Under the pieces are notes generated by a model. That model searched no databases. It worked only from the letters and a program-made list of their open reading frames with translations, and was not told the origin of the DNA. From IMG/VR virus record IMGVR_UViG_3300010151_000010, positions 1-64,000 of that record: a stretch of DNA of 64,000 nucleotides; one strand, written 5' to 3'. The translations under genes and the position numbers were made by a program. This document shows positions 41,399-57,567 of this stretch, piece after piece. Source of the DNA: a virus (Duplodnaviria; Caudoviricetes). Positions within the stretch are counted from its first letter, which is position 1. Each line of letters opens with the position of its first letter.

Positions 41399-41502
41399 TT
41401 TCTTTTCTCTCCCCTTTTCTCCTGTCCGAGTATTCCTTCGTCCCGTCTATACACTCGTATTTAATTCTCCCTGTTTAGACATTACTTCGGAATAATCGTA
41501 TT

Positions 41503-41525
41503 TACTATCTTCGTTTAAATACCAA
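41503..41525 (-). promoter_or_regulatory. Conserved 23-bp TATA-containing element, copy 1
   Basis: TTGGTATTTAAACGAAGATAGTA on -, upstream of the helicase. Confidence 0.8.
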
Positions 41526-41526
41526 A

Positions 41527-42207
41527 TCAATTGAACACCTTCCTTTCGACGTGAACAGGAGATTCGCTAGTTAATGCCTTGATGATTTTCTTTGCTGACT
41601 TGTCGCCCAACCCTTTCACCTTCTTGAGTGAGTCTAAGAAAAGCATCTCTTCAATAGAGCCACATTCCTTGAGTAATCTATCAGCCATGACTGAACCTAT
41701 GCCGGGTATGCACAGAAGTATGTCCTTCCGCACATCGTTTGTGCTGACCCTACGTATTCCCTGTGCGCCATGTTGAGACGCTGGCTTGTGGAGTTTGTTG
41801 TGTAGTTTCACCACGAATGAGGCGGCTTCACTGACGTTTGGAGTAAACAAGACTTGGCAGTCAAAATCTGCCATAGTGCGCGCTATGAGTCCTACCATCT
41901 TACTTTGGATGCGGCTGTATGAATGCTTCTTGTTCATTTTGACGTAGGCTGATATACTGCCGTGTATCAATAAGAAGAAGCGTTCGTAATTAGCATCCAT
42001 GTTATCCAATTGCTTCCACAGGTGTCCGGTGTCGCAAGAATGGAGGAAGTCGCTAACCGATTTGGCTTCGATGCACGCCGCACCTAACAGGTAGTCGCCA
42101 ACCACAAGCGTCTTTCTTTCAACACACAAGCCTGCATTTTCGGCCTTGCGTATCACGGATTCGCATAATTTGCCTCTCTCGTTGGTGTCTATGAATAAGT
42201 CAGTCAT
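41527..42207 (-). CDS. xpf: XPF/ERCC4 structure-specific nuclease with tandem HhH
   Basis: IDTNE, GDY, IEAKSVSDF, IPGIG, VKGLG; start MTDLFID. Confidence 0.9.
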   Translation of the reverse strand: MTDLFIDTNERGKLCESVIRKAENAGLCVERKTLVVGDYLLGAACIEAKSVSDFLHSCDTGHLWKQLDNMDANYERFFLLIHGSISAYVKMNKKHSYSRIQSKMVGLIARTMADFDCQVLFTPNVSEAASFVVKLHNKLHKPASQHGAQGIRRVSTNDVRKDILLCIPGIGSVMADRLLKECGSIEEMLFLDSLKKVKGLGDKSAKKIIKALTSESPVHVERKVFN

Positions 42208-42211
42208 CCGT

Positions 42212-42427
42212 TCACCTCCTGTGCATCGCACACATATTCTTTTTTGATTCGGGAAGACGTCTAAGTTTGCACCTCTTCCCTTTCGCAGTTAAGGCGATGC
42301 AACGGTCTTCATCCTTTGGATAATTGAAACAAGGCTGACATAATTTTCTGAATGAGTATTTTCCATTCACTTTTCTTTGGGGGTTCCTATGGCTTAACTT
42401 GGCGCCACATTCACTACACTCTCTCAT
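42212..42427 (-). CDS. Double zinc-finger small protein
   Basis: CSEC...CQPC plus CIALTAKGKRC...CAMH. Confidence 0.65.
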   Translation of the reverse strand: MRECSECGAKLSHRNPQRKVNGKYSFRKLCQPCFNYPKDEDRCIALTAKGKRCKLRRLPESKKNMCAMHRR

Positions 42428-43527
42428 AGCAAATCCTCCGCAGTTCCATCGTAATACTTGCATTTACCTGCACACAGGCCTTCTTGCATCAAAGTTTCAC
42501 AACGTGCGTGAGCATAACCCTTGAACACTATGCTCTCGACTTGGGTTCTCGTTATGTTTTCGTTCCAATCGACCCATCCTTGCTCCGAGCATATCTGCAC
42601 AATCTGCTCAACGTGCTTCGGCAAGTCTTCTTTCGGCACATTATCAATCGGAAAGAACCAACGAAGCCTGTCTGCGAGATAGGACGCGAGATGGTATCTC
42701 GCTCTATGTGTTGGATTACCGGCTCCAAGAGCCGCTTGGACTATACAAGGCAGAACTTTGATTGAGCCTAACGAGACTGTGGGTAAATCAGATACATTCT
42801 TTCGCTCTTTCTTGCTAAAGGCATTATTCTTCTTAGGCAGAATGAGTTTGAGTGGTTTGCTTCCTTGAGCGATGTAGCCACGTCTGTAATCCTGTGCTAT
42901 TTCGTAAATAGTCTCGAAATCTAAGGACATGAGTTCATCACTTTCAATCGGTATAACCCAACACCCTCTCTTTGCGTTGTAGGAGTTAGGGATGCGTATC
43001 ATTCCCGCAAGGTCGAATGCAACAGTAGGGTCGTTGCATGAGAGGTTGAGGTTATCATGCCAGCGCTTCATTAGCCTCCTTCCGGCACTTTTGATTCTCG
43101 TCACCTCCAATCCGTCTATTGGTAGGAATGTTTCAGATAAAGGAATATAGATGTGAAATCCACCTCCTGTGAAGAAGATGTAGTGTTGGTAGCCATTGTC
43201 CAACAGATGTTTGTGAAGCCGTTGCACTTGTTCCTGCATGAAGGAGAAATCAACATCAACACCTCCATTCTTGAAGTCCTTGCAGTCGAAGTCCATTACA
43301 AAGTGTCTGACTATTGCAGTATTGTATTCGACTCTATGGTGCTTGGGTGCTTGGGTGCTTCGATACCCATATGCGGTATGATACGCATTACCAGACCCGT
43401 TCTTTCCTTTCCAATACTTCTCCAACGCTTCCCAATCGCGGACGATATAACGCCCACCATGCTTACCGCTCGAACTCACTTCGAGGACTTCTCTTGGGAA
43501 GTCGCGTATCAATGACGCAAACGCCAT
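42424..43527 (-). CDS. Archaeo-eukaryotic primase, PriS fused to the PriL Fe-S domain
   Basis: MDFD, TGGGFH, IRIPNSYN, then LPCI...H.ARY.LASY...RCETL...LC...C. Confidence 0.88.
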   Translation of the reverse strand: MAFASLIRDFPREVLEVSSSGKHGGRYIVRDWEALEKYWKGKNGSGNAYHTAYGYRSTQAPKHHRVEYNTAIVRHFVMDFDCKDFKNGGVDVDFSFMQEQVQRLHKHLLDNGYQHYIFFTGGGFHIYIPLSETFLPIDGLEVTRIKSAGRRLMKRWHDNLNLSCNDPTVAFDLAGMIRIPNSYNAKRGCWVIPIESDELMSLDFETIYEIAQDYRRGYIAQGSKPLKLILPKKNNAFSKKERKNVSDLPTVSLGSIKVLPCIVQAALGAGNPTHRARYHLASYLADRLRWFFPIDNVPKEDLPKHVEQIVQICSEQGWVDWNENITRTQVESIVFKGYAHARCETLMQEGLCAGKCKYYDGTAEDLL

Positions 43528-43528
43528 A

Positions 43529-43870
43529 TTACTCAGCCATATCCTTGTATCTTCGATGGATTTTTACTGCTAAGGACGCTGGCCCTTCGGGAAACAAGTT
43601 CTTCTCAGTATACGTAAATGCGCGCTTGTCTATCACAACGTCAAGAACGTGAAAATACGGAACTTCTGCGTTCTCTTCGGTGTAATAATCAAGCGTCATC
43701 TGCTTGGTTAATTGGGCCTTGAAATCTCCCGTTCCCAACATACCGTAAGTTACATTCACTTCCATATTCTTATCCTCTCCCTTCAACATCTCAGACAAAA
43801 TGTTTGCCGTTCTATTTACTTTTTCTTTCAGTTCACTCTTCTTCATTCTCATATTCGTTTCCTCCTTCAT
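43529..43870 (-). CDS. Hypothetical protein with a PIP-like motif
   Basis: QMTLDYY; within the replication operon; start uncertain. Confidence 0.6.
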   Translation of the reverse strand: MKEETNMRMKKSELKEKVNRTANILSEMLKGEDKNMEVNVTYGMLGTGDFKAQLTKQMTLDYYTEENAEVPYFHVLDVVIDKRAFTYTEKNLFPEGPASLAVKIHRRYKDMAE

Positions 43871-44939
43871 TCATTCCCCAAGCCGGACACAGTTCCATAA
43901 ACGAACAGTAAGAGCAATTTGTCATTGTCTCTCCATTAGGTGTTCTCCATTCTCGTATTTTAGGTTCAAATGAATCATATAGGTGCCCTTTCACAAGGTT
44001 CTGTATTTTTCTCATCGCAGTTCGAGGGGCGAATTGTGTCTTTCGTGTTCCGGTTTCTTCTAATTCCCATTCTGCTCTATCGCCTCCGTTCACATATCCT
44101 CTTGGGAACTCCCAAGCCCAATGTGTGATAGGAAGGAAATCACTGTATTCTCCTTCTTCAAGCATCATTCTGTAAATCTGCATTTCCACTCTCATCTTAG
44201 TGGCAGTCTTCTTCTCTCGCCATTTACCTGTCTTAAGTTCCATCAGTATGAATCCGCCCTCTCCATCCGAGAAGATGGTATCAATGAATCCTCGGAGATG
44301 GACAGGATATTTTTCGCCATCCACTTCCACCATAACGACGCCGTGCGCTGATACTTCGTTTCCTACAGGCATCCAATCCATCATATCCATATCAGGAGTG
44401 GAGCAGACGAGAAATCTATCCCACTGCCAATCAAACCATTTTCGTATGACTACTTCTTCTCCAAATTGATATGGGAGTGGAGGTGTAGGTATCACTTGCC
44501 ACAGAATATCCTTCGCAAGCATTTTCTTCCCTTCTTTTAGCAAGGCGCTGGCGACCTCAAGCGGAGTGCTATCGTCCGTTTTCTGATTCTGCGGACACGT
44601 CTCGTCGTAGCGATTGTGGTTCAGATTGTTGCAGATACATTCTGGCTCATGGGGAGGCTCATCCACGTTATCCCAGAAATACTCGACTATGCTATGCACG
44701 TTCGTTCCACGAATCATATCGTCGTTTTCTGGCTCGGAGAGGCGATAGATGTGCTTGAGTTTGTATTGATGAGGACACCAATCATAGTCGTTGATAGACG
44801 ATTTACTTGCCCTCAGTATCATATCCTTCATGTCGGGTGTCCAATTATAGCACGACCTGTTGTATGATTCAAGCAGTTTCGGCGTATGCGCTTCAGTGCG
44901 CCGCTCGAAGAAAGCCTCTTCATTCGGATTAAACTTCAT
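43833..44939 (-). CDS. Cas4/AddB-like PD-(D/E)XK exonuclease with Fe-S staple
   Basis: S.SSI..Y.WCP, GTNVH, LRGFID, ELKTG, QIY, CSYCSFMELCP. Confidence 0.88.
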   Translation of the reverse strand: MKFNPNEEAFFERRTEAHTPKLLESYNRSCYNWTPDMKDMILRASKSSINDYDWCPHQYKLKHIYRLSEPENDDMIRGTNVHSIVEYFWDNVDEPPHEPECICNNLNHNRYDETCPQNQKTDDSTPLEVASALLKEGKKMLAKDILWQVIPTPPLPYQFGEEVVIRKWFDWQWDRFLVCSTPDMDMMDWMPVGNEVSAHGVVMVEVDGEKYPVHLRGFIDTIFSDGEGGFILMELKTGKWREKKTATKMRVEMQIYRMMLEEGEYSDFLPITHWAWEFPRGYVNGGDRAEWELEETGTRKTQFAPRTAMRKIQNLVKGHLYDSFEPKIREWRTPNGETMTNCSYCSFMELCPAWGMNEGGNEYENEEE

Positions 44940-45061
44940 TCAGAACACCCCTCACATCTCATATTGGTGAATGGTTTTCGACAGTTTGGACAAGTAGGCG
45001 CTCCATTTACCATATAGGTCGTAGTAAACCCATGCCATCCACATACACATTGCGATAACAT
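44936..45061 (-). CDS. 41-aa zinc-ribbon microprotein
   Basis: CVCG...CPNC...CEGC; SD GGTGAT before ATG at 45061. Confidence 0.6.
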   Translation of the reverse strand: MLSQCVCGWHGFTTTYMVNGAPTCPNCRKPFTNMRCEGCSE

Positions 45062-45066
45062 TTCAA

Positions 45067-47460
45067 TCACCAATGGGTCTTGGGTTTTTGTCTCCCAATT
45101 GCCTCTCCAATATCCCAATCCAAAACCCGATATATGTTCTCAATTTTCTTTTCGATGAACTTCTGAACACACACGGCATAATCAATTTGGAAATCCTTGA
45201 CTTCATCTGCATCCCTAAATCCAACGACAAGAGTCGGAGGCATATCTTTGGGAGTTTGTAATACGTAGCACCACTGTGGGCTTTCTCCGACCCTAAAGGG
45301 ATTTTTAGGGTTGATGTGGTCATTGTAGTAATATGCCCCTCTTACAGCCATAGGCGGCGTTCTCTTGTATTCTGCCTTGCCTATTTTTCCATACGGTGAA
45401 AGCGCATCCCACGTCCAATTTCCTGCAAGAACGTCAAGTGATATTTCTCTAATCATCTTCGTGACTTCTTCTTCGTCTGCTCCTGTTCCGACTAAATCGA
45501 ATATCTTTCCTTGTATCGTCTTTGTGAGTGGAGATACGCTGGACGCTTTGTATGAGAATCCTGTCACCTTCAATTGCCCTTTCTTTTCGGGAGGCCAAAT
45601 CATAAATCCGAAGTTTTGATTTTTCACATCAGCGGTTAGCCAATAGTCGAAGTAGGCTTCTAACTCAATTTCCATCATGGGAAGTTCGTATCGAGTCCTA
45701 ATGATTTTGTTGAGGTTCTTGAGGTGAGCGTCTATCTCATCGAATGGAATCTGAATATAACCGGAATCGGTGTGGCCTGCGAGAGCCGCATAACCAGCCT
45801 TCTCGCTTTCCAGCAGAAGGGTGTTGATACACTCTCTTCCGTAGTAGGTAATAGTGCGACCCACATCGGGGTCTATCCATCCACCACTCACTTTCTTCTG
45901 AGACATATAGCCATAGATTGCGTTGGTTGCGACTTTGACAGCAGTCTGCAATAAATCCCATTTGAGTTTCTCGTCTTCGCTCTTTGCCGCCTTCATCTTC
46001 TTCTTGTAGTCTTGTCGTAATTCAAGCATACCCCAAATGATTGCAGGAATGACGCCTATGCCCGATGCCTCCTTTCTCCAATGCGTTCCGTTTCCAACGC
46101 TTCGGATTCCGTCGCCACCATTTTTCTGCTTTGTTGTCGGGCATAGATTCGCGTTATACGCTATTAGCGGGTACATGGACTTGAAGTCAATACAAGCGAC
46201 TCCTTCGTGTCGTCCACCAACGGTTTCCGGCACGTCTGCACCATCATATTGGTCGCGTTGGTGGTAGTGAGTGGTGAGAGCCTTTATGTCGGTATGGCGA
46301 GAGATACGCCCTCTTACAAAACGAGATACGTTACAGGTACTTTTGAAGACGACTCCACATTCTTTCTGCATAGCCAAATGGTAAGGTATCGCATTCACCT
46401 TTTCAGCACAATGCCTCAATAGTGTAGTGTCGCGCACACAGTAATCAACGAACTCATCGAAGTTCTCAACCCACCATGTAAATACATCAGCATCCATTTT
46501 CTTTCCCTGCTCACCTAACTCTTTGGCTAACTCTAAATCTTCTGCGATGGTTGCGAGTTTCTTGTTTCTGAATGTTCCACGTCCATTCTTCTGCCAAACT
46601 GCCTCCAATCCGCTTCCTGTATTCCACGCGAGCGCAGTGTCGTAAACGAGCCTTCCCAAAATTGGTTGAGCATTATCGTGGTAGCCATCCTTTTTACGCG
46701 GTCTTACTGTCTGCCCCAATGGACTGAGTTTGTCTGCTTTATTTCCTAAGCGTTCAACGAGTTTAGGCAAGTCGGCCCAATAGATGGCGTGGGCGATGAG
46801 AATGTCAGGGTTGCACTTATTCAAGTGCTTAAGAAAAGCGTCGAGCATTTTCTGTTCGCTTCCATAGAGGTATCTATCATACCCTCCTTCTCTTTCGATG
46901 TAGTCTATGGTGCAACCTTTCTCTCCTTCTTTCCAAGCGAATATCAATGGGCGGTTTCCCATAGTGTCGTCAATCGCAATCATGGTGATTGCCCCTTCAT
47001 GTTGACACCCTTCGGGTTGCCATTCCATATCGAAATACCAAATCCTCGGATGAAAGTCCGGTATGTCTTTGTTATCGGGGTAAGCATGAATCATCAATTG
47101 GTCTGCGTAAGGCATATCTGCCTCATAAGTCTGAATCTCACTCTTAATGTCGTAAAGGTGTATGGGATTAGGCACGTCGAGACGTATCAATGATGCTTTA
47201 TCTATCCCTTTCGCCTTAATGTCCGAGCGTACCCTAACGCCCGGATAGCGTGCAGTCAAACGAGACAATTTCTTCGGATGGGTGTTCTCCGCCACCCAAC
47301 AATGTGGGGGAATCCAAAGCGGGTTGTCAATGTCGGAGTTTTCGTTGGGATTTATCGCGTGTTCGATTACTTCCCCATCTGCTCTTCTATATCGGTAGTA
47401 AACGTGTGGATAACCAACGCCTTCCCACTCGTCATCGGGATAATAATAGTCGATTATCAT
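45067..47460 (-). CDS. polB: Family B DNA polymerase
   Basis: ExoI FDME, ExoIII YCVRD, DFKSMYP, KVATNAIYG, GHTDS; start MIIDYYY at 47460. Confidence 0.95.
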   Translation of the reverse strand: MIIDYYYPDDEWEGVGYPHVYYRYRRADGEVIEHAINPNENSDIDNPLWIPPHCWVAENTHPKKLSRLTARYPGVRVRSDIKAKGIDKASLIRLDVPNPIHLYDIKSEIQTYEADMPYADQLMIHAYPDNKDIPDFHPRIWYFDMEWQPEGCQHEGAITMIAIDDTMGNRPLIFAWKEGEKGCTIDYIEREGGYDRYLYGSEQKMLDAFLKHLNKCNPDILIAHAIYWADLPKLVERLGNKADKLSPLGQTVRPRKKDGYHDNAQPILGRLVYDTALAWNTGSGLEAVWQKNGRGTFRNKKLATIAEDLELAKELGEQGKKMDADVFTWWVENFDEFVDYCVRDTTLLRHCAEKVNAIPYHLAMQKECGVVFKSTCNVSRFVRGRISRHTDIKALTTHYHQRDQYDGADVPETVGGRHEGVACIDFKSMYPLIAYNANLCPTTKQKNGGDGIRSVGNGTHWRKEASGIGVIPAIIWGMLELRQDYKKKMKAAKSEDEKLKWDLLQTAVKVATNAIYGYMSQKKVSGGWIDPDVGRTITYYGRECINTLLLESEKAGYAALAGHTDSGYIQIPFDEIDAHLKNLNKIIRTRYELPMMEIELEAYFDYWLTADVKNQNFGFMIWPPEKKGQLKVTGFSYKASSVSPLTKTIQGKIFDLVGTGADEEEVTKMIREISLDVLAGNWTWDALSPYGKIGKAEYKRTPPMAVRGAYYYNDHINPKNPFRVGESPQWCYVLQTPKDMPPTLVVGFRDADEVKDFQIDYAVCVQKFIEKKIENIYRVLDWDIGEAIGRQKPKTHW

Positions 47461-47555
47461 TGAGCACACTTCCTACACAATAGTATCTGATTTTTGTTAG
47501 ACCACAAAGGCCCAAACTTGTGGCACTTACCACAACGTCCGATTTCCTTACTCAT
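47457..47555 (-). CDS. 32-aa C4 zinc-finger microprotein
   Basis: Hand translation MSKEIGRCGKCHK...LCRKCAQ*; ATGA overlap with polB. Confidence 0.55.
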   Translation of the reverse strand: MSKEIGRCGKCHKFGPLWSNKNQILLCRKCAQ

Positions 47556-47561
47556 GCTGGC

Positions 47562-48341
47562 TCACTCCTGCTGGTCTATGATTATCAGTAATCTCTTCAA
47601 GTTTGTTTCGGTCTGCTCTATCACAAGCCCACTCGCATCACCGAAGTGAAAACGACACGTAGTGCCGCCATCCACTAAGCCAAGGCAAGGGAGCAACCAT
47701 GGACCGAAGTTAGACTTCACAGTCTTGATACCTTTCTTCTCAAGAGTCACATCAGTGACTGTGCTTGACGCGAATATCTTAGCATCATGAGTCTTACCCG
47801 CAGACGCAGAAATCTCTTCGTTCTCAACGTCCATTGTGACACTATAATCGGCCCCATATTTCGTCACGATGTTCTTCAATGAAGCGAGTTTGAGTATCTC
47901 GCTCATCTTCGTTCTCCCATGCACCGTGTAGGTATCAGCGCCAAACGTCTTCCACTTATTCCCCTTAGCCTCCTTCACGAGTTTGGCGTAGGTCTTGACC
48001 AATTGTTGGCTTTTGCTATCCGTCACAGGAAGCGACAGTTTGAATGAGCCGCTCGCCAAATATAGCGTGCTTCCGTTCTTCACTTGTTTTATCGTCACAT
48101 CTCCACTGCACTTCTTCAAGAATGCACAGGCTTTAGTGAGGTCTGAGAAAGTAAGTGGGCCTGCCTTTGCTTTAGCGTCAGGGTAGGCGCGAGATACATT
48201 GAGGAAGAAGGTCTGATAGCCTGCGCTATAACCGATAGCGTTTGGCGTCTCAAAGACGTTGATTACTAAATCACTAATCACGTCACTGAACTGCCCTACG
48301 TGGGCAAGCCACTCCTTGCTATCAAGCGTTATCTGCGCCAT
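47562..48341 (-). CDS. Divergent sliding clamp (PCNA-like)
   Basis: 259 aa; two-domain beta/alpha pattern; next to polB and in the same module as RFC; no strong motif. Confidence 0.55.
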   Translation of the reverse strand: MAQITLDSKEWLAHVGQFSDVISDLVINVFETPNAIGYSAGYQTFFLNVSRAYPDAKAKAGPLTFSDLTKACAFLKKCSGDVTIKQVKNGSTLYLASGSFKLSLPVTDSKSQQLVKTYAKLVKEAKGNKWKTFGADTYTVHGRTKMSEILKLASLKNIVTKYGADYSVTMDVENEEISASAGKTHDAKIFASSTVTDVTLEKKGIKTVKSNFGPWLLPCLGLVDGGTTCRFHFGDASGLVIEQTETNLKRLLIIIDQQE

Positions 48342-48642
48342 CTGCGTTCACCCCATGATATTCTTCAAGAAGCGCATCGAGTTTAGGAGTAGTGCTACCC
48401 GACCTCGTCAGTCGTCTTCCACTACAATACTCAGACAGTTTTGATGCGAGCGTTTGCTCTCTCGTTCGTAGTCGCTGAATATAGATGACCGCATCCATGA
48501 GTTCGTGTTGCAGATGCTCCAACCACTCATCATGCGTGAGGTCATCACGCTCCATTGTGAGGCCACCGTATTTGTCGGTGGCTTGCACCTTCTTCGCTCT
48601 TGCTTGTATGATTGCGCACACTTCGTCTTCCACTTTGCTCAT
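48322..48642 (-). CDS. MazG-like all-alpha nucleotide pyrophosphohydrolase-like protein
   Basis: KYG..T.ERDDL...EWLEHLQHELMDAVIY. Confidence 0.55.
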   Translation of the reverse strand: MSKVEDEVCAIIQARAKKVQATDKYGGLTMERDDLTHDEWLEHLQHELMDAVIYIQRLRTREQTLASKLSEYCSGRRLTRSGSTTPKLDALLEEYHGVNADGADNA

Positions 48643-48658
48643 TCGTTCACCAACCAAT

Positions 48659-49375
48659 TCACAGCCGCTCAAGTTCCGGCAGACCCATGAAGTTAGGCTC
48701 CTCGCCCTGTCTCGTTGTTAGGATAGTTCTCCGTTGCCCTTGTAGCGTGGCGTCAGTCTTGCTCTTCTCAAAGGCGGCTGTGAATGTTTCGCCTACAACC
48801 TTCCCGTCCTCAACCTCGTCCTTGCGACGACAGTGAACAATTTGGAACATATATCCAGCACTGCTCTTCTCCCATGCAGGCGCGCCATCGCTCTCAACTA
48901 TCTTACCGCCTTTACCGTATACGTCCTTCATGTGTGTCTCCCAAAAGACTCTCACGCCTCTCTTCACCAAAGCACGACAGACGGCAGTTAATTGGTGGAA
49001 TCGGGTGACTCTAATCGCCCAATCCCATTGTTGTTGCACTCTTTCGTTAGAGCCTGCACCACGATTGTCTGCGGCCTCTATACCATCCTTAGAGAGTCCT
49101 AAGTCCTGTATTCTCATACAGTTAGTTGCTACGCTATCCCATAGGTCTATGCCGGTAATTAGAACGCCCCACAAATCCTCGTGCTTCTCCATAGCGAACT
49201 GCATGATTTTCATCGTTCGGTCATGGGTAGCAGGGTAGTCGTAGGCAGTCCTCTCTCCCTTGAGATATACCCAAGGTTCCCAACACTTGATGCCCTCATT
49301 GTTTGGATAGTATGCTGACTTGGTAGCGGAGCCACCATTGTCGAAATCAACCACCCAAAACTGCTTCGCGCTCAT
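48659..49375 (-). CDS. RecA/Sak4-like ATPase, C-terminal part without Walker A
   Basis: VVDFDNG, VLITGID, VFWETH, FEKSK; own SD GAGGTGA. Confidence 0.6.
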   Translation of the reverse strand: MSAKQFWVVDFDNGGSATKSAYYPNNEGIKCWEPWVYLKGERTAYDYPATHDRTMKIMQFAMEKHEDLWGVLITGIDLWDSVATNCMRIQDLGLSKDGIEAADNRGAGSNERVQQQWDWAIRVTRFHQLTAVCRALVKRGVRVFWETHMKDVYGKGGKIVESDGAPAWEKSSAGYMFQIVHCRRKDEVEDGKVVGETFTAAFEKSKTDATLQGQRRTILTTRQGEEPNFMGLPELERL

Positions 49376-49919: not shown

Positions 49920-49933
49920 TTTTTTCTCTCCAT

Positions 49934-51277: not shown

Positions 51278-52250
51278 TTTTCTTCACCTTTTCTCTCATT
51301 TTAGCCACCGCATAATCGCAGTAGGAGTAGTCATCGCCGGGCCATGTGTATCTATGCGTCATCACGTCGCCGTATGCCGCCATTATATCCCATATAGAAT
51401 CGAGGTTATCCTCTTCATCAAAGTAATCGTATATGTTCAGATAGAAGTTCCTCATTACTTGATGTAAGGAACGCCCGTTCTTGAGCATCTCATGGAAGTT
51501 ATTGCGCACTTTCCACCACTCGTCTCCTATGGCGTGGGCAATCGCATCCTCACCCATTGTTTCCTCTAAGCGCGATAGTCTCTCTCCTAATTGCTCTATA
51601 TCAATTGAATCGAGGAACATGATAGATGCACGCATATCACCGTTCATGAGTTCAATCAGATTCTGAAGTTTCTCGACTAATTTCCTTCTTTCATCTGTCG
51701 AATACTCAGCACGAATCTCAAGCAGACATTCATGGGGTAGCACTGAGAGTAGTCTCATCGCTCCCGGTCCTGCTGGCACAGGCGTAAACGCATACGCTTT
51801 GCATCGTGAGCGTATGGCTGGGCGTATCTTCTCTAATTCGTTGCACGTCATTATGACCATCGCATTGTGACTATACTTCTCTATCAATTGTCTCATAGCG
51901 TCTTGCGCGCTTGGTGTGAGGCCGTCTGCCTCATCGAGTAGGATGATTTTTCTCGGCGTTCCGAGAGGTTTGCTACGCATCGCAGACTTGAGTTCGTTGC
52001 GAATGAAGTCTATGCCCCTATCGTCGCTGGCGTTGCTCTCGATGAAGTTCATATCATTAAACCAATCATCGAGCAGTGTTCGCGCTATGACATGAGCCGA
52101 ACTCGTCTTACCCGTTCCCGGAGGCCCATAGAAGAGAAGGGCTTGAGGCCAATCATATGTATCGGCCCACCCATTTACGTCTGCAACGAGTTCGTCCAAC
52201 CCAACCAATTCGGTCAGGGTTTTCGGTATCGCCATTTCTGCGAGGTCCAT
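51270..52250 (-). CDS. rfcS: Replication factor C small subunit (clamp loader)
   Basis: GPPGTGKT, NASDDRGID, LDEAD, IRSRC. Confidence 0.93.
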   Translation of the reverse strand: MDLAEMAIPKTLTELVGLDELVADVNGWADTYDWPQALLFYGPPGTGKTSSAHVIARTLLDDWFNDMNFIESNASDDRGIDFIRNELKSAMRSKPLGTPRKIILLDEADGLTPSAQDAMRQLIEKYSHNAMVIMTCNELEKIRPAIRSRCKAYAFTPVPAGPGAMRLLSVLPHECLLEIRAEYSTDERRKLVEKLQNLIELMNGDMRASIMFLDSIDIEQLGERLSRLEETMGEDAIAHAIGDEWWKVRNNFHEMLKNGRSLHQVMRNFYLNIYDYFDEEDNLDSIWDIMAAYGDVMTHRYTWPGDDYSYCDYAVAKMREKVKKNE

Positions 52251-52259
52251 GATTCTCTA

Positions 52260-52282
52260 TACTATCTTCGTTTAAATACCAA
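52260..52282 (-). promoter_or_regulatory. Conserved 23-bp element, copy 2
   Basis: Exact copy; TATTTAAA begins 28 nt upstream of the RFC ATG. Confidence 0.85.
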
Positions 52283-52700
52283 AGGCATTTTCAAGCATCT
52301 CTTTTTCATTATCGAATGACTCAATCCAATTAAGGAAATCCGCGTCATTTGCAGATTTGCGCGGAATGGGATTTGCAGTGACCCATTCCATCATATTCAA
52401 TCCCGCCCTATCTGTTATCGCTTCGCTCCATTGGCGATTCAAGAGATGAAACCACTTCTCTATCTCTTCGCGCTCTTCGTATTTCTCCTTGAGTTCAATA
52501 CCGAAAGGTGCGAGAAATATCTCCACACATTGTAATTGACTGCCCGTTCCCGTTTTGAATAAAGAGCGCCAGCATATCCTTCTTCTCACACGATAACCCC
52601 ATCGAGCGTCAGCCCTCTTTTCGACCCACGTTCTAAAGCGTATCTCCGTTAGGATGATGCCCAACCCCATCCATTCCTCGCGTCTGTCGTTAGTTTGCAT
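52272..52700 (-). CDS. Hypothetical protein, possibly degenerate LAGLIDADG fold
   Basis: WMGLGIILTEIRFRTWVEK...WGYRVRRRI helix followed by a basic beta hairpin. Confidence 0.45.
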   Translation of the reverse strand: MQTNDRREEWMGLGIILTEIRFRTWVEKRADARWGYRVRRRICWRSLFKTGTGSQLQCVEIFLAPFGIELKEKYEEREEIEKWFHLLNRQWSEAITDRAGLNMMEWVTANPIPRKSANDADFLNWIESFDNEKEMLENAFGI

Positions 52701-53949
52701 CTATGCCCACCAAATCCACATACTGCGTCAAGTCAGATATACCCATATCACTCATCACCTCAACGAGAGATGGCTCGCTCAGTGTGTTTGTCCTCCTATC
52801 CACAAAAGGAGAACTCACGCCTAAGACGATGCAAACATCATCGGAGATTTCTCGCCACGACTTTGCTTCTTCTGTATTAGAGCCAATCATTCTTTCTATG
52901 TTGAATATCACTGCCGCTCGTTCTGAGGGTATTTGAACCGTGAGTAGTCCAACATCAATGTATTCGTCTCCATCAAGTGCGTGTAATTTCACGTATAGCG
53001 CATCGCCAGATTTGTATGATGCTATGCGTAGTTTACTGATATGTGATTGCCTTACGAGAATATACCCTCCATATTCCGTTGGAGAGAATGCTCCTGTATT
53101 TGGAAACCTTATCGTGCCTTCTCGCTTGACTATGCTTTCCCAAGAGGGTATCATCTCAGGCCACGCTATGTCTGCATCTTCATGTGAGTCAGCATATTTG
53201 ACGAGTCGCTCTTTGAGAGGAAGGGTTGGGTATTCGGGATATGCTATATCGGTAATTGTCTTTCCTACTTTTTCTATAATTATGTTTTTATCTTCGTCGT
53301 ATTCGACTGTGACTGTGCCGCTCGGTATCGCTTGAAATGTATCTAAGGCAACCGTTGTATATTCATTCCAAGCCTTCCATTTACGCTTACGTAATCCAGC
53401 AGTCGGCTTCTCATACCACCGTTTAGGGTCGAGAAGGGCATCTGTATTCCCATATAAGGAGGTGATTATTTCAGAATCTGTGAGGAAAGACCGGCTGTTA
53501 GTTATCGTTTCGTGCGGCACTTTGGGATTGAGAGACTTGAGAAAACGCAAGGAAGAGATAGGCATTCGTTTGCCTAAGACGCTATCCCAAAATAGGTGCG
53601 CATCTATTCCATCCATCTGCTTGCTTAGGGAAAGGAACGAGAATGAGGTTGTGGTGGTCGCATTCCTAACGCGGAGTGCTTCTTCTAACGACCACTCGCT
53701 TGAATTAGAGGCACTGCTTTCAGACGCAAGTAAAATCGGTATACTGCTCGCCTCTAAGGACATAAGGACTTCGTATGGAACGCCTAATTCGTTAGCCACT
53801 TTGAAAACTAATTGTCTTTCGGTCAAGGTTTTATCGGGAAACAAAAGAGCATATGCTTGTCTTGCTTCAGCCTCGTTCAGCGTTAGCGTTAGTTTGGAAT
53901 CGCCTAAGCGTATGCGTTCGCATACAATTGCTAACTCACTGAAGCGCAT
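52690..53949 (-). CDS. Degenerate ATP-dependent DNA ligase-like protein
   Basis: MRFSELAIVCERI ligase-like N-terminus; OB-like C-terminus (LDGDEYIDVG); no KxDG found. Confidence 0.55.
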   Translation of the reverse strand: MRFSELAIVCERIRLGDSKLTLTLNEAEARQAYALLFPDKTLTERQLVFKVANELGVPYEVLMSLEASSIPILLASESSASNSSEWSLEEALRVRNATTTTSFSFLSLSKQMDGIDAHLFWDSVLGKRMPISSLRFLKSLNPKVPHETITNSRSFLTDSEIITSLYGNTDALLDPKRWYEKPTAGLRKRKWKAWNEYTTVALDTFQAIPSGTVTVEYDEDKNIIIEKVGKTITDIAYPEYPTLPLKERLVKYADSHEDADIAWPEMIPSWESIVKREGTIRFPNTGAFSPTEYGGYILVRQSHISKLRIASYKSGDALYVKLHALDGDEYIDVGLLTVQIPSERAAVIFNIERMIGSNTEEAKSWREISDDVCIVLGVSSPFVDRRTNTLSEPSLVEVMSDMGISDLTQYVDLVGIDAN

Positions 53950-54256
53950 CGTCTATCAAATGCGGAACGGAAGACGCCCACTTATTGGGGTTTGGCTTTG
54001 TTTTTTCCCCGAATATCCTCATGGTTGCTTTCTCCACGTCCTTGATGCTTACCTTCGTGTTATGTTGCTTGCGCGTCATTAGGAATATACAATCAATTAA
54101 CAGGCATTTGTTTGTTCTCCTATTGGAGTAGTGAGAGTTATTTCGCACTTGGTTATACAATGTATACGCCGCATTGACTTGAGAAGGCTTCAAGCCCAAT
54201 TCCATACCTAACGAGTAAATCGAGGCTTCCATAAACTTAGACTCATGGATTTCCAT
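53936..54256 (-). CDS. Stand-alone TFB/TFIIB cyclin-repeat protein
   Basis: SLGMELGL...V..A..LY...R......DCIFL..R.....SIKDV resembles one TFB core repeat. Confidence 0.6.
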   Translation of the reverse strand: MEIHESKFMEASIYSLGMELGLKPSQVNAAYTLYNQVRNNSHYSNRRTNKCLLIDCIFLMTRKQHNTKVSIKDVEKATMRIFGEKTKPNPNKWASSVPHLIDDALQ

Positions 54257-54260
54257 TTAA

Positions 54261-54575
54261 TCACCTATCGTTGATGAAGGTGTATGCTACGAGACTCCAC
54301 ATTTCGTTGTATAGTGCTTTCAATTGCTTATCCTTAACTGAGTTTTTGAAATTGGTATAACCTGTTTCTTTCAATCTATTCTTCACTGCTTCTCCGACTT
54401 CTTCTCTCGGTATGTATGCCCTATATGGGTAATCTGCTAAGGAGTCCTTGAAGTAGTCGCATTTTGGAAATACGTTAGTAAGGTGAGTTAATTTTCTTGC
54501 TCTCACTAACAGTGTTTCATCATCATTGTAGTTCTTCACTATACTCAACCAACCATCATTCAATCCTATCCACAT
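54261..54575 (-). CDS. Phage-type hypothetical protein
   Basis: MWI...G.LSIV, LLVRAR, DYPYRA, Y.NFK pattern. Confidence 0.7.
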   Translation of the reverse strand: MWIGLNDGWLSIVKNYNDDETLLVRARKLTHLTNVFPKCDYFKDSLADYPYRAYIPREEVGEAVKNRLKETGYTNFKNSVKDKQLKALYNEMWSLVAYTFINDR

Positions 54576-54600
54576 TCTTCTCTATCTCCTATACCCTCTA

Positions 54601-54623
54601 TACTATCTTCGTTTAAATACCAA
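54601..54623 (-). promoter_or_regulatory. Conserved 23-bp element, copy 3
   Basis: Exact copy in the intergenic region upstream of 54575. Confidence 0.85.
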
Positions 54624-54647
54624 ACATCTGAGCGGCGGCGAAGCCAA

Positions 54648-55325
54648 TCAATCTAAGCGACGGTGGAGCGAGTCAATTCGACGACCCATCACATCTCTTG
54701 TCTGTTTATCTCTCAAAACTGAAAGGGCTTGTTCCATAGCATCTGAGCCACCGTAAGCATCGTAAGACTGTCCAAGTTCTTTATCACCCATACTTCCAAA
54801 CACGTCTTCTGTAAATGGTGGCTTCCAACGCATAGTGTCTAACTCACCTACTGTGTCTCCCCATGCTTGCCCCTTTTCGCCTCCCTGCGCTCTATATGGG
54901 CCAGAACCGCCCACGTCCACATAGGTAGGAGTACCATCGGGTCGCATTAACACATTATCCATATTCGCCCCTAATACGTCCCAATTTGCTATGAGGGCTT
55001 GAGGAACAAAACCTTCCTGTAATACTCCAATATCCTTCCTGTTAGAGAGCGAGGGCTGTCTTGCCCCACTCTCAAACTCAGTGAGCATTAACGGCATTCC
55101 TCTCTCATCTCTTTGCAGCGATGCTTTAGGTACACCCACTCCCAATTCGTGGAGATACCTATTGAAATCGAACTCGTTATCAATGTGTTTAGCGTGAGCG
55201 CCGCGCTTCACAACCACTTTCTCCCCCGAAGGGAGGGTCATTTGCACTGCTCCTGTGGAGCCGCCTAAGTATCGAGGGTCACTTGCTTGAAGATGTTCCC
55301 ATGCCTTCGCTAAAGGGTCCATCAT
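54648..55325 (-). CDS. Atypical kinase-like protein (PI3/4K, HipA or actin-fragmin kinase-like)
   Basis: LGGSTG, VVK, NE, LGVGVP, ANWD, DN, YVDVG motifs. Confidence 0.65.
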   Translation of the reverse strand: MMDPLAKAWEHLQASDPRYLGGSTGAVQMTLPSGEKVVVKRGAHAKHIDNEFDFNRYLHELGVGVPKASLQRDERGMPLMLTEFESGARQPSLSNRKDIGVLQEGFVPQALIANWDVLGANMDNVLMRPDGTPTYVDVGGSGPYRAQGGEKGQAWGDTVGELDTMRWKPPFTEDVFGSMGDKELGQSYDAYGGSDAMEQALSVLRDKQTRDVMGRRIDSLHRRLD

Positions 55326-56083
55326 TTATGCACCGTTGGGTTAATCGGAGTCTCGCCGTCATTATAGATATACTTGTCCTTAACTTCCGGCTTTTCCTCG
55401 CTGAATAATACATATTGATGCTCTCTTCTTCCTTTCTTACAATGGAAAGAAATTGCCGCTTTTTTGATGATTTTGAGTTCTTCACCCAACAACAACAATC
55501 TGCCAGCAGAACCTCTTGGCACGTCTTGCCATGCCCATTCGAGGATTTGTGCCTTAGTCGTCGGGGTTCCCCTCATCTCTAAGAACTTCGTGAGAGTTTT
55601 GAATCTCTTTTCCTGCATCGGCGTTAGAGGTTTTTTCGGCGTTTCGTCTATTAGACTTGAACTTGGTATAGGTATGTCTGCATTCTCGAATGCCTTGCTG
55701 ATTCGAGAGTTCACGATAGCGAGTTTTTCTGAGAACTTCTTTTCCATGCTATCCACGAGAGCGATTTTCTCATCAAAAATCTGCTCCACCTTTTTCTCGA
55801 CTGCTTCCGTAAGTAAATTAAGCGCGTGAGTTTCTATGTCTCTCACTATCGTATTTTGCTCTCCCTGTTGGATTTCAACATTAAGTTCAATCGCTCCTAT
55901 TTTGTCTTCTATTTCTCTCAATCTCTTGTATGCGTCTTTGCTCATATCATCACTTCTTTTCTTTATTTGTCTGTGTAGGTTCTTTACTCTCGGACTGCAC
56001 TCATCGCACGTCCAGCGTTGAGACGTAAATGATATAGCACGAAATGGTTTCTCGCATTTTCGACACGTTCTTATATATGACAT
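55322..56083 (-). CDS. Zn-finger, coiled-coil and putative winged-HTH protein
   Basis: CRKC...CDEC; heptads; C-terminal TKAQIL...SAGRLL...K.I.K. Confidence 0.6.
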   Translation of the reverse strand: MSYIRTCRKCEKPFRAISFTSQRWTCDECSPRVKNLHRQIKKRSDDMSKDAYKRLREIEDKIGAIELNVEIQQGEQNTIVRDIETHALNLLTEAVEKKVEQIFDEKIALVDSMEKKFSEKLAIVNSRISKAFENADIPIPSSSLIDETPKKPLTPMQEKRFKTLTKFLEMRGTPTTKAQILEWAWQDVPRGSAGRLLLLGEELKIIKKAAISFHCKKGRREHQYVLFSEEKPEVKDKYIYNDGETPINPTVHK

Positions 56084-56104
56084 ATATCCACCAACCTATT
56101 TTAA

Positions 56105-56821
56105 CTAATCATTCATAGAATCGAGTATTCCACTCCACATAGTATATCCAACGTCGTCATATTCGTCTTCCGCCTTCTGTATCATAGATTCGACTTTCTC
56201 AATCTGTTTTACTTGCTTCTTCTCAAGTAAAGACTCTAATTCATTCTTCGCATCTTTCTTCACCTTCTTGTTATTCATGCAATCAGGGCAGGTCATGCGC
56301 AGTTTACCTCGTCCTTTCTGCTCTTTCTCTTGCTTACACTTCTTACAGGTATAAGCCCGTATAACAGGGTCGTAGTTCTTCAACGCCGAGACTCTTGCGA
56401 TTTCGTTGCGTTGCTTCAATTGGCATACAGGGCATCTCGTAGCAAGTTTACCTCGTCCTTTCTTAGTTCCTAAAGCGGTTTCGCAATCAATGCAAGTGCC
56501 TTGTTCACGAATAATCGGTCTGAATGTCTTGACTCGATATTCAGCATTTTGCTTCTTCTTGAGTTTGGTCCGGCATTCTTCACACCGCTTGATTGTGCGC
56601 CCTTTTCCTTTCTGTGTAATTTCAGTATCGCAGTCTTCGTTCTCACAAATGCGCTTTCGCACTACGCGAGGTTTAGGCTTCCTCATTTGCTTCCTGTATT
56701 TCTTCAAGCATGATTCTTTGGCGCACATACTCGGTGCGCGTCCACGTTTCACTTCGTAAGTGAAGGATTCGTCGCAGATTTTGCATGATAAACTCAACCC
56801 CCATACTGATTCCTTATCCAT
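56105..56821 (-). CDS. Basic protein with four tandem zinc-finger repeats
   Basis: Four Cx2-4C...G(R/K)...Cx2-4C units. Confidence 0.75.
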   Translation of the reverse strand: MDKESVWGLSLSCKICDESFTYEVKRGRAPSMCAKESCLKKYRKQMRKPKPRVVRKRICENEDCDTEITQKGKGRTIKRCEECRTKLKKKQNAEYRVKTFRPIIREQGTCIDCETALGTKKGRGKLATRCPVCQLKQRNEIARVSALKNYDPVIRAYTCKKCKQEKEQKGRGKLRMTCPDCMNNKKVKKDAKNELESLLEKKQVKQIEKVESMIQKAEDEYDDVGYTMWSGILDSMND

Positions 56822-56825
56822 ACAC

Positions 56826-57074
56826 TCACCGCCTCCGCTTTCTTATGTCGTCTATATATTCGAGTATCGCAGCCACTCCAGCAAAGCACCAAAACCAATC
56901 GCTATCAATATCTGAATAGCCTGTCACATTCGACAGGCTTCCAATTACTATGACTAAACCTGCTACGAGCATTCCTTCGTGTCGTATGATTCTCGGCGCT
57001 AACGCCTGTATATCTTCAACCGTTAATTCGCCATCATCATTAAAGTCGAGAAGGGCCGTAATTTTCTTTTTCAT
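56826..57074 (-). CDS. Small membrane protein with an EF-hand-like loop
   Basis: DFNDDGELTVED followed by two hydrophobic helices and a basic tail. Confidence 0.65.
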   Translation of the reverse strand: MKKKITALLDFNDDGELTVEDIQALAPRIIRHEGMLVAGLVIVIGSLSNVTGYSDIDSDWFWCFAGVAAILEYIDDIRKRRR

Positions 57075-57075
57075 A

Positions 57076-57237
57076 TTACTCTTCCTCCCCACAACTACAT
57101 ACAGCAATTTCATATTCACTATACCGATGACCTTCATCTATTATATCTCCACACTTATCACACTCTTCTGTACGAAAAACCCAATCAGGTAAATCATCTT
57201 CAGGATGCCATGTGCTTCTATCAGGAACTGAACGCAT
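57076..57237 (-). CDS. Zinc-ribbon microprotein
   Basis: CDKCG...CSCG; start MRSVPD. Confidence 0.55.
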   Translation of the reverse strand: MRSVPDRSTWHPEDDLPDWVFRTEECDKCGDIIDEGHRYSEYEIAVCSCGEEE

Positions 57238-57242
57238 TATAC

Positions 57243-57536
57243 TCACTCCAACATTTCCATCAAGTCCTCGATATTGGACTTCTGCCAACCTAATGTTCCA
57301 CCTTCTGTTATGCACTCAGCACTACATCGGGTGCAAAGGAGGTGGACATTCCCAATCTCCCACATATCTGAGTTCACTGTCGTTAGAGTCCATACGTGAC
57401 CCTCGTCTCGACAGACTTCCAGATACTTCTGTATGTCTCTTTGCTTCATGAGGTCGCTTAATTTACTCGCAAGTGCTTGTCGTTCATCTGTTAGTTTTGC
57501 TATTTCTTCATCGTATTTTTTTGCCATGTTTCTCAT
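57243..57536 (-). CDS. Coiled-coil plus Zn-binding protein
   Basis: C...GH.W...CTRC. Confidence 0.65.
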   Translation of the reverse strand: MRNMAKKYDEEIAKLTDERQALASKLSDLMKQRDIQKYLEVCRDEGHVWTLTTVNSDMWEIGNVHLLCTRCSAECITEGGTLGWQKSNIEDLMEMLE

Positions 57537-57544
57537 TCTCCTAT

Positions 57545-57567
57545 TACTATCTTCGTTTAAATACCAA
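57545..57567 (-). promoter_or_regulatory. Conserved 23-bp element, copy 4
   Basis: Exact copy; TATTTAAA begins 27 nt upstream of ATG 57536. Confidence 0.85.

Follow-up and report, generated by a model that had tools for sequence, protein, structure and literature searches.

A letter-perfect 23-bp repeat as a probable lineage-specific promoter class in a magrovirus-like genome

Introduction

In the virus record IMGVR_UViG_3300010151_000010, a 23-bp sequence is found unchanged ahead of several gene blocks, which raises the question of what function could keep such a sequence constant. An initial reading of the first 64,000 nt of the record (the window) proposed a virus-specific promoter class recognized by a viral factor, with iterons or recombination sites as alternatives.

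Magroviruses are abundant ocean viruses of Marine Group II/Poseidoniales. Their hosts have never been cultured, and the literature searched contains no paper joining magroviruses and promoters, or Poseidoniales, promoters, and TATA boxes. The genes of the present record include those for a thermosome, a family B polymerase, RFC, an ERCC4 nuclease, a PD-(D/E)XK nuclease, a primase-like protein, an SNF2 helicase, and an ATP-dependent ligase, together with tape-measure and tail matches. In the available text of PMC5434244, magroviruses combine a tailed-virus structural module with a near-complete archaeal-type replication set, and group A members also carry a thermosome subunit and an SNF2 helicase. 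Set against this description, the record appears magrovirus-like in gene content, and on that content it probably represents an uncultured ocean virus infecting archaea, presumably marine Poseidoniales.

Sequence and copy number of the element

The 23-mer, TTGGTATTTAAACGAAGATAGTA, has four exact matches in the window, all on the minus strand (41503-41525, 52260-52282, 54601-54623, and 57545-57567), as first reported. Sites with one to three mismatches are absent from the window, and 100 dinucleotide shuffles gave no matches. The whole record (78,777 b) extends the count to seven, again all exact and on the minus strand, with the additional copies at 66586, 71632, and 72945; a control with the motif read backwards had no matches. 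The element is sharply bounded: the whole-record mismatch spectrum has seven sites at zero, none at one to six, and a background beginning at seven, while sites with nine or fewer mismatches numbered 21-44 on one strand of 20 mononucleotide shuffles, resembling the true background.

Each copy consists of 4 bp (TTGG), a TATA-like box TATTTAAA at motif positions 5-12, and a further 11 bp. The identity over 11 bp beyond the box that was noted originally is therefore confirmed, with 4 bp before the box in addition. On both strands of the whole record, the 8-mer TATTTAAA is confined to the seven motif copies (in the window, minus strand, at 41514-41521, 52271-52278, 54612-54619, and 57556-57563). 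Three of the seven copies (57545, 66586, and 72945) also share a 15-nt extension beyond the motif, ATAGGAGAATGAGAA (57530-57544, minus strand, for the first of these), which spans the putative transcription start and a GGAG.

Genes behind the copies

The distribution of the copies follows gene organization. All seven are co-directional with genes and lie at ORF boundaries of the replication/early arm (~36-78.7 kb, minus strand), in agreement with the original description of them as upstream of gene blocks; summed from the ORF model, inter-ORF DNA makes up only ~1.0-1.3 kb of this 42.8-kb arm. The copy at 41503-41525 is between the ERCC4 nuclease gene and a 470-aa P-loop gene (39986-41398, minus strand; 49-80% identity in 15 loci), which opens the last of the motif-headed blocks and has its ATG 104 nt past the motif end. 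The copy at 52260-52282 heads the RFC small-subunit (clamp-loader) gene (51270-52250, minus strand; AAA, 8.9e-21; DNA_pol3_delta2, 3.6e-14), with the first base of the box 28 nt before the ATG. The copy at 54601-54623 heads a block of 104-aa, 106-aa cyclin-box, 419-aa, and 142-aa genes; the ATG is 25 nt past the motif end and the leader contains GGAG. The copy at 57545-57567 heads a 97-aa gene (57243-57536), whose first ATG is 27 nt past the first base of the box. The 27-28 nt spacing originally noted for two copies is thus exact for 52260 and 57545; at the other two window copies the distances are 44 and 123 nt. At 52260 and 57545 the upstream ORF terminates inside the motif, which supplies its final codons, GGT ATT, and its stop, TAA.

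Conservation in close relatives

Exact copies of the 23-mer are also found in a 102-kb relative (nine) and a 33.8-kb relative (two), with none at one to three mismatches in either. All nine in the 102-kb relative are upstream of, and oriented with, genes. Seven motif pairs are orthologous between the record and this relative, with no changes in 161 bases, whereas their alignable 100-nt flanks differ by ~4% (44/1000 positions, summed) and the genome blocks as a whole are 72-96% identical. Substitutions are present 3-5 nt past the motif end (copies at 27806 and 44293).

Lineage-specific versions in distant relatives

A further 32, more distant loci were found through the RFC gene (RFC identity 31-59%). 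In 14-15 of these, a lineage-specific, box-containing word of 20-25 bp is repeated on the gene strand, always with one copy just upstream of RFC: a box-containing 16-mer 25-70 nt before that gene recurs two to four more times on the same strand. No opposite-strand copies of the repeated word were found among the 32 loci, and the more distant L053-L059 have no such repeat. The words differ lineage by lineage, with boxes including TATATAAA, TATAAAAG, TACTTAAA, and TTATAATA, preceded by TTGAC, TTCAC, AATCC, or GAACCC.

Despite the changed sequence, the place of the motif is retained before the RFC, 470-aa, 104-aa, and 97-aa genes. The relative's own version is present at the junction of the ERCC4 and 470-aa genes in L033, L042, L043, L045, and L046; in front of the orthologous 104-aa gene in L029, L031, L033, and L037; and in front of the orthologous 97-aa gene in L029, L031, and L037. 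The copies of a genome change together: L040 and L041 share 92.1% overall identity but not the bases that precede the box, with ...TTTCCGATATAAAGG in all three L040 copies and ...TCATATAAAGG in all three L041 copies (two as CTTCCTCA..., one as CTTTCTCA...). The element is private to its lineage, and relatives have their own versions.

Box-to-ATG geometry

Distances from the first base of the box to the ATG were collected for 61 copies in 17 records, 60 of them with a downstream ORF; since many of the copies are orthologues, the 60 cannot be counted as independent. Twenty-five of the 60 fall at 26-30 nt and 18 at 27-28 nt, as against 3.9% and 1.6%, respectively, of 6000 random same-strand positions. 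Only two distances are shorter, both to upstream in-frame ATGs. For RFC alone, the distance is 27-30 nt in eight differing lineage versions. This pile-up of start codons 26-30 nt past the box is archaeal leaderless geometry, and is indirect evidence for transcription starting ~24-28 nt downstream of the box, as at archaeal TBP/TFB-dependent core promoters.

Probable function as a promoter

From sequence, placement, conservation, and ATG geometry, it can be inferred that the 23-mer probably forms the core of a class of promoters used by the host archaeal RNA polymerase, heading operon-like replication and early blocks. Its behavior as a promoter class is supported by the box, the co-orientation with genes, the place at the head of operons, the conserved positions, and the ATG pile-up. 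Under this interpretation, the copies would split the replication/early arm into operon-like blocks. TBP would bind the box, and transcription would begin ~26-28 nt after its first base, or 8-10 nt past the motif end. The mRNA of some genes (RFC and the 97-aa gene) would then have no leader or almost none, and that of others a 10-100 nt leader carrying GGAG.

Some observations fit a basal promoter less well. In model archaea, a purine-rich BRE is found directly upstream of the box. The TTGG of the 23-mer is not of this type, in keeping with the original observation, although the consensus is that of model archaea and may not be the host's. Letter-perfect identity over 23 bp also exceeds basal promoter needs, and counts against a plain promoter, as does the lack of such a repeat in L053-L059. 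The only RNA runs located, which have small shares and are stored as contigs, reveal no transcription starts. Because the flanks are letter-perfect within a genome yet vary from lineage to lineage, they would have to be constrained by more than TBP: contacts with host TFB or polymerase, a viral or host regulator, or homogenization of copies by recombination. In favor of the host enzyme, Pfam gave no match to an RNA polymerase, TFB, or TBP family in the ORFs scanned.

Comparison with known repeat promoters

The best reading, by analogy, is that the element is a further case of the intergenic-repeat promoters already known from the salt-lake archaeal virus HF2. In the available text of PMC8707807, the HF2 repeats are promoters by experiment, with a TATA box at -26 and mapped start sites; they are active in a host that has no viral genes, and they keep their positions across the genus. 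HF2 and the present, probably archaeal, virus are both tailed, with two gene arms that face inward, and in both a strongly conserved repeat with an AT-rich box is gene-oriented, confined to gene boundaries, and found nowhere else in the genome. In both, the repeat heads early-middle blocks including that for family B polymerase, and relatives retain it in sequence and position. The best cultured matches to the PolB of the record include HF1 and HF2, at ~24% identity. The differences are also considerable. The HF2 repeats are 58 and 29 bp long rather than 23 bp, with apparently unrelated sequences; class I repeats are identity blocks with variable positions, whereas the copies here are letter-perfect; the conserved gamma block of HF2 includes the start, whereas the perfect block here ends ~8-10 nt before the presumed start; and the late-class repeat is not seen in this record. 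HF2 has a haloarchaeal host; the present virus has a presumed marine Poseidoniales host. By eye, the short HF2 strings quoted in PMC8707807 are unlike the 23-mer.

A second parallel is with SIRV2 and other archaeal viruses, for which a consensus regulatory sequence of early genes is described (available text of Bhoobalan-Chitty et al., 2024, PMC11065993); SIRV1 and SIRV2 have a GTC element after the TATA box (PMC5569661, in part). As far as these sources go, the likeness is in a highly similar promoter sequence before many early genes that are themselves different, and in a virus-specific element right after the TATA box. The SIRV promoters differ in having a canonical purine-rich BRE and TTTAWATA, where TTGG precedes the box here, and in serving mostly single small genes at genome ends rather than multi-gene replication blocks.

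Candidate viral readers

As a refinement of the promoter interpretation, the virus may encode a factor that reads the flanks and thereby favors these promoters, sets their timing, or silences them. This is possible, if doubtful. It would suit copies that are uniform within a genome and different between lineages, as in L040 and L041, and the HF2 authors propose viral factors for their repeats (PMC8707807, available text). However, the HF2 promoters fire without viral genes by the same account, and homogenization can also give uniformity. Of the original prediction, then, the lineage-private, promoter-like class stands well on box, orientation, position, and ATG pile-up, and recognition by a viral factor much less so.

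One candidate is the 106-aa protein (53936-54256, minus strand), a single cyclin-box protein with weak likeness to the TFIIB/TFB repeat and a possible reader or modulator. Its gene sits in a motif-headed block, with gene order retained in relatives. PF00382 is matched by five of the 13 members of its family (best E 0.0018), but the record's own member has no Pfam match; in a search of the family profile against PDB, TFIIB accounted for five of seven matches (E 0.29-0.69). The predicted structure (pLDDT 88.9) is a single five-helix domain, with fold matches to cyclin C (Z 9.7, rmsd 4.1, 104 aligned) and to Pyrococcus TFB 1ais_B (Z 8.2, rmsd 3.7, 94 aligned); these Z values are in the range rated uncertain for helical models, and Foldseek gave E values of 0.13 and above. 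The full TFB layout (N-terminal zinc ribbon, B-reader/linker, and two cyclin repeats) is absent from the protein. Judging from this model it may at most be a fragment-like TFB relative, not a full TFB. The TFB-like protein of the original prediction gains some support from family similarity and fold.

Another candidate DNA binder is a 238-aa protein (56105-56821, minus strand) with four zinc-ribbon-plus-helix modules and basic GKGR loops, for which a fold search returned no usable match. A 253-aa zinc-ribbon/coiled-coil protein could also be considered. For the LAGLIDADG-like protein first suggested, Pfam scans gave no LAGLIDADG family match. Of 33 loci searched by tblastn, the cyclin-box gene was seen in only 13 and the zinc-ribbon protein in seven, fewer than the motif-bearing loci. 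Moreover, the candidate genes are themselves behind motif copies, and their products therefore cannot be required for a first round of firing.

The first cyclin repeat of TFIIB contacts DNA downstream of the box. In a more specific version, the element would be a composite of a TATA box and a lineage-private downstream element, with the viral 106-aa protein docking on TBP as a “mini-TFB” and reading the latter. Reader and element would then co-evolve by lineage, which would account for the joint change of all copies within a genome; even so, this version is rather unlikely.

Other possible functions

The copies could conceivably be binding sites only, such as operators like mycobacteriophage stoperators or other protein sites, without promoter function. 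All-or-none conservation and a single orientation relative to transcription would suit a dedicated site. The AT-rich 8-mer core unique to the copies argues against it, as does the location of every copy before a gene start at a promoter-like distance; the 23-mer, as read from its sequence, also has no internal palindrome or direct repeat. This reading is accordingly judged improbable.

A main role as recombination sites for cassette exchange, origin iterons, or packaging signals is more improbable still. One non-homologous cassette between the record and the 102-kb relative does end within 2 nt of one of the copies (at reverse-complement position 7122, where the alignment picks up again, against 7124 for the first base of the motif), but only one or two of ~20 alignment breaks are near copies. 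Recombination, one of the alternatives offered originally, may be a side role, on the strength of this one boundary. The PeSL (promoter-early stem-loop) elements of T4-type phages are likewise repeated promoters bordering small accessory cassettes, and the cassette swap here resembles them in ending at a motif copy. Unlike in PeSLs, a stem-loop is not a constant partner of the copies: z-scores for the 70-nt upstream flanks of the seven are +1.29, +0.14, +0.04, -2.18, -0.81, +0.60, and -2.97, below -2 in only two, and no constant hairpin was found beside them. The iteron alternative, also part of the original prediction, fits poorly with copies dispersed over 31 kb, one per gene boundary or block, at gaps of 1.3-10.8 kb, where iterons would be grouped in a non-coding region of a few hundred bp. 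The divergent control region of the 102-kb relative has its own tandem GCGGTATGC cluster, apart from the motif, and this is a better origin candidate.

T7-type promoters are ~23 bp long, near-identical, multi-copy, in one orientation, and private to a phage lineage, and require a phage-encoded single-subunit RNA polymerase. The 23-mer has this likeness in length, letter-perfect identity, copy number, and orientation, and a T7- or N4-like polymerase might lie within the giant 5612-aa ORF of the virion module (8029-24867), which has no Pfam, PHROG, or PDB match. There is very little to recommend this, however: the element has a TATA-type box, with a pile-up of ATGs at 27-28 nt that fits archaeal TBP-dependent geometry across lineages with differing word lengths; none of the ORFs scanned matched an RNA polymerase family; and the large gene behind the 71632 copy resembles a PEP-utilising dikinase, not a polymerase. 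According to PMC5569661, archaeal viruses depend on the host RNA polymerase, and none is known to encode its own.

A bacterial sigma-70-type promoter (-35 as TTGGTA or TTGACT) and a bacterial host can hardly be entertained: relatives' words do start with TTGACT (five of six matches to the -35 consensus) and GGAG-type ribosome sites are in use, but a consensus scan of the minus strand gave 22 sites against 25.6 expected, with no window copy among them, there is no -10 hexamer at 16-18 nt, a start at such spacing would follow the RFC ATG, and the gene content is of archaeal type (thermosome, 9.6e-116; RFC; family B polymerase; ERCC4).

Implications

If the 23-mer is a promoter class of the host polymerase, the repeated signal would provide a ready map of early and replication operons in these viruses, and a marker for early and accessory genes in related contigs. 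Future genetic work in these archaea would also have in it a strong candidate for a promoter part. The joint, lineage-wise change of copies makes the question of what reads the flanks a concrete one, with testable candidate proteins. Should the 106-aa protein indeed be such a reader, the virus could use it to favor its replication operons at the expense of host genes, or to switch them off, and the archaeal pre-initiation complex would have been taken over by a stripped-down general factor.

Genome context

Structural genes, with tape-measure, tail-tube and tail-spike matches, occupy the plus strand from 1 to 36 kb. A single 5612-aa ORF in this module (window 8029-24867, plus strand) has in none of its parts a Pfam match of note, a PHROG or a PDB sequence match; elsewhere in the structural arm, a 21-nt tandem repeat of 4-5 units (4856-4960, plus strand) lies within the gene for a SAP-domain protein. 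The minus-strand arm, 36-78.7 kb of the 78,777-base virus record, encodes a thermosome subunit (match 9.6e-116), ERCC4 and PD-(D/E)XK nucleases, a family B polymerase, the clamp-loader small subunit (RFC; 51270-52250), a primase-like protein, an SNF2 helicase, an ATP-dependent ligase and a dikinase/phosphatase pair. A thermosome, an SNF2 helicase and an archaeal-type replication set are described for magrovirus group A (PMC5434244), and by this likeness in gene content the virus may be called magrovirus-like. The best cultured matches to its polymerase are HF1/HF2-type haloviruses, at ~24% identity. A thermosome search of genome contigs returned two loci from Methanomicrobiaceae and a 31-kb contig, binned as bacterial but probably viral (50% identity); Poseidoniales genomes were absent from the matches to this query.

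The minus-strand arm has other repeats as well. A 50-nt direct repeat (98% identity; 36899-36948 and 37251-37300, 352 nt apart) flanks an 86-aa gene beside the thermosome gene and duplicates a ribosome site, ATG and first codons. Three to four small paralogous genes of the early region (59496-59851, 62473-62661 and 63057-63287, minus strand; 100, 152 and 123 aa) have common 45-52-nt stretches at 64-100% identity, and form a small expanded gene family.

Copies and placement of the 23-mer

The exact 23-mer TTGGTATTTAAACGAAGATAGTA occurs four times in the window, at 41503, 52260, 54601 and 57545, all on the minus strand, as in the original prediction; the whole record adds three more (66586, 71632 and 72945), for seven copies, every one on that strand. 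Its layout is TTGG-TATTTAAA-CGAAGATAGTA, where the TATA-like box TATTTAAA is absent from the rest of the record on either strand. Versions with one to three mismatches are found neither in the window nor among 100 shuffles, and over the whole record a site is either perfect (seven cases) or differs at seven or more positions, the level of chance background, with nothing at one to six mismatches. Identity ends sharply on both sides in an alignment of the four window copies, although 15 further downstream bases are common to three of the seven. Runs of eight A/T bases are genuinely depleted (111 vs. 425 in shuffles), a depletion that coding constraint alone could explain.

The minus-strand arm is tightly packed, mostly with 4-nt gene overlaps and GGAG-type ribosome sites, and in the ORF model its inter-ORF DNA sums to ~1.0-1.3 kb of 42.8 kb. 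All seven copies lie at ORF boundaries, co-oriented with the genes, and divide the arm into blocks. At two of them the last codons of the upstream ORF (GGT ATT TAA) fall within the motif. From motif end to the next ATG there are 8, 8, 9, 19, 25, 25 and 104 nt, a variation that argues against a translation signal. The longest of these distances is the unusually long leader (41399-41502) of a gene for a 470-aa P-loop protein with a TGKS motif (39986-41398, minus strand), a protein conserved better than RFC, with 49-80% identity across 15 related loci and 67-80% across 11 of those; part of the leader, ATTCCGA, recurs in one distant relative (L033). Just upstream of the 72945 copy, at record 72968-73037 on the minus strand, a 12-bp hairpin with a U-run (z -2.97) may be the terminator of the block before it.

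Close relatives

Elsewhere in IMG/VR just two contigs contain the exact 23-mer: a complete 102-kb genome with nine copies and a 33.8-kb fragment with two, in each case all on one strand and with no versions at one to three mismatches. The 102-kb genome matches this record in blocks of 72-96% identity and contains orthologues of all seven copies. Over these seven pairs there is no change in 161 bases, where ~7 would be predicted from flank divergence: the alignable 100-nt flanks differ at ~4% of positions (44/1000, summed), and substitutions are present as close as 3-5 nt beyond the motif end (copies at 27806 and 44293). An unchanged motif between diverged flanks is genuine, if modest, evidence of constraint.

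The first copy in the 102-kb genome lies in the divergent region between its two arms, close behind some ten clustered GCGGTATGC repeats (5340-5760) that are likely a replication origin.

Distant relatives

For a wider comparison 26 RFC proteins were aligned and 80 loci fetched, 33 of them with an RFC of 31-59% identity; 32 were examined, the exception being L039, whose RFC is truncated where the locus begins. In 14-15 of the 32 (L034 is doubtful), a 16-mer with an AT-rich box begins 25-70 nt before RFC and has two to four more copies on the same strand, with none on the opposite strand. Each lineage has its own word, including TTGACTATATAAACCGAGATTGAA, TTGACTATATAAACTGG, GCTTTCCGATATAAAGGAACAA, TTCACTACTTAAAGCAG, ATGATATATAAACCAAYTAAGAAATG and GTATTTAAACTRACTAAGAAA; further ones exist. 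In a 30-nt frame, copies are 74-93% alike within a record vs. 23-75% between lineages. Gene order is kept, and the lineage word precedes RFC, the 470-aa P-loop gene after ERCC4, a 104-aa gene and a 97-aa gene, as it does here. With its own word before the same genes in each lineage, the element is thus conserved in position while its sequence drifts, and the copies of one genome drift together. The expectation that the motif would keep its place relative to genes in related genomes was therefore borne out, for a changed sequence. Two loci, L040 and L041, share 92.1% overall identity, yet their copies differ right before the box: ...TTTCCGATATAAAGG in all three of L040, and ...TCATATAAAGG in the three of L041, where two copies have CTTCCTCA... 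and the third CTTTCTCA... In the most distant loci (L053-L059) no repeated box-containing word was found before RFC.

Distance to start codons

Distances were taken from the first base of the box to the first ATG opening an ORF of 40 aa or longer, for 61 copies in 17 records chosen for having a repeated box-containing word; 60 of the copies have such an ORF behind them. The distance is 26-30 nt for 25/60 copies vs. 234/6000 (3.9%) random same-strand positions, and 27-28 nt for 18/60 vs. 96/6000 (1.6%), many of the 60 being mutually orthologous, so that the effective number is smaller. Only two distances are shorter (14 and 22 nt), both to upstream in-frame ATGs within conserved words. For RFC by itself, eight lineage versions place the start codon 27-30 nt from the box although the bases between differ. 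If transcription began ~26-27 nt from the box and messages were leaderless, such a lower limit with a pile-up of ATGs at it would be expected; the spacing agrees with archaeal TBP geometry as reported for the halovirus HF2, in which the TATA begins at -26 (PMC8707807).

Two seawater metatranscriptome runs from one study contain 0.07 and 0.05 of the sampled words, and yield six and seven contig pieces on 40001-60000, in a contig form that carries no start or end information. One RNA contig ends inside the 57545 copy (aligned 57518-57560), a repeated word being a place where contig breaks are expected, so that this end carries no weight.

Possible readers

No Pfam match to RNA polymerase, TFB or TBP was found in the scanned ORFs, and archaeal viruses are reported to depend on host RNA polymerase (review, PMC5569661); the box is therefore most economically taken as read by TBP and the host polymerase. 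This leaves the flanks to be explained. For a LAGLIDADG-like protein, earlier named as a possible reader, the scanned ORFs gave no Pfam match; two other proteins are candidates.

The first, of 106 aa (53936-54256, minus strand), is encoded second in the gene block behind the 54601 copy, with homologues in 13 of the 33 loci, in the same place. Its confident model is a single cyclin-box fold (pLDDT 88.9) matching almost exclusively other cyclin-box folds (cyclin C, Z 9.7; Pyrococcus TFB 1ais_B, Z 8.2; TFIIB, Z 8.0-8.3); no Foldseek E value is below 0.13. Similarity to the TFIIB repeat is weak and seen for the family: five of seven PDB matches to the family profile are TFIIB (E 0.29-0.69), and five of the 13 family members match the Pfam TFIIB repeat (best E 0.0018), the window's own member having no match. 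With one repeat and neither zinc ribbon nor linker, it falls short of a full TFB; TFB homologues are reported for some other archaeal viruses (PMC13700489). A complex prediction for the family with Thermoplasma TBP as stand-in scored 0.19 (mark 0.32), which counts neither way on binding.

The second candidate, of 238 aa (56105-56821, minus strand), has four zinc-ribbon-plus-helix modules with basic loops, and is confined to the clade nearest this virus (7/33 loci). A fold search with its model (pLDDT 79.4, pTM 0.36) gave no usable match (probabilities at most 0.20, query-normalised TM-scores below 0.15). The adjoining gene (55322-56083, minus strand) encodes another zinc protein, of 253 aa and likewise a possible reader, with a zinc ribbon at its N-terminus, a coiled coil, and a C-terminal region resembling a winged helix by eye.

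Possible functions

Comparison with relatives gives good support to the promoter part of the original proposal, and the placement, the box and the ATG pile-up agree with it; recognition by a viral factor, the other part, is possible. The copies might instead be recombination sites. A small-gene cassette between two of them (record ~71655-72693) is replaced in the 102-kb relative by unrelated genes (14492-16243), and homology restarts 2 nt before the downstream copy; the majority of breaks, however, are elsewhere than at copies. A role as operators only would leave unexplained why the AT box is unique to the copies and why their distances resemble those of promoters. As an unlikely further possibility, the element might be served by the virus's own RNA polymerase, perhaps within the giant 5612-aa ORF, but none was found in the scanned ORFs, and the box-to-ATG geometry speaks against it. 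The 810-aa ORF behind the 71632 copy has no Pfam, PHROG or PDB match and is placed by the Atlas near PEP-utilising enzymes, and so does not look like a polymerase. Iterons, also raised at the outset, are unlikely, the copies being dispersed and the 102-kb relative offering a better origin candidate; a PeSL-type cassette does not fit, since upstream hairpins are not constant; and a bacterial sigma-70 promoter is not supported, a scan giving no enrichment and not listing the copies.

The closest known case is that of the HF2 intergenic repeats of classes I and II, for which reporter assays, primer extension and scanning mutagenesis established promoter function (PMC8707807). Throughout the genus these repeats keep both sequence and position, and they stand before early-middle blocks, including that of the polymerase gene; the authors suspect viral regulators, yet activity was seen without any viral gene (PMC8707807). 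Further examples are the SIRV2 early-gene consensus (PMC11065993) and the rudiviral GTC element (PMC5569661). In the literature searched no paper pairs "magrovirus" with "promoter", and in two magrovirus papers the terms promoter, TATA, motif and repeat do not appear. By analogy, the 23-mer would belong with the viral promoter elements of the HF2 and SIRV2 type, in a different virus group; the observation itself is confirmed and extended.
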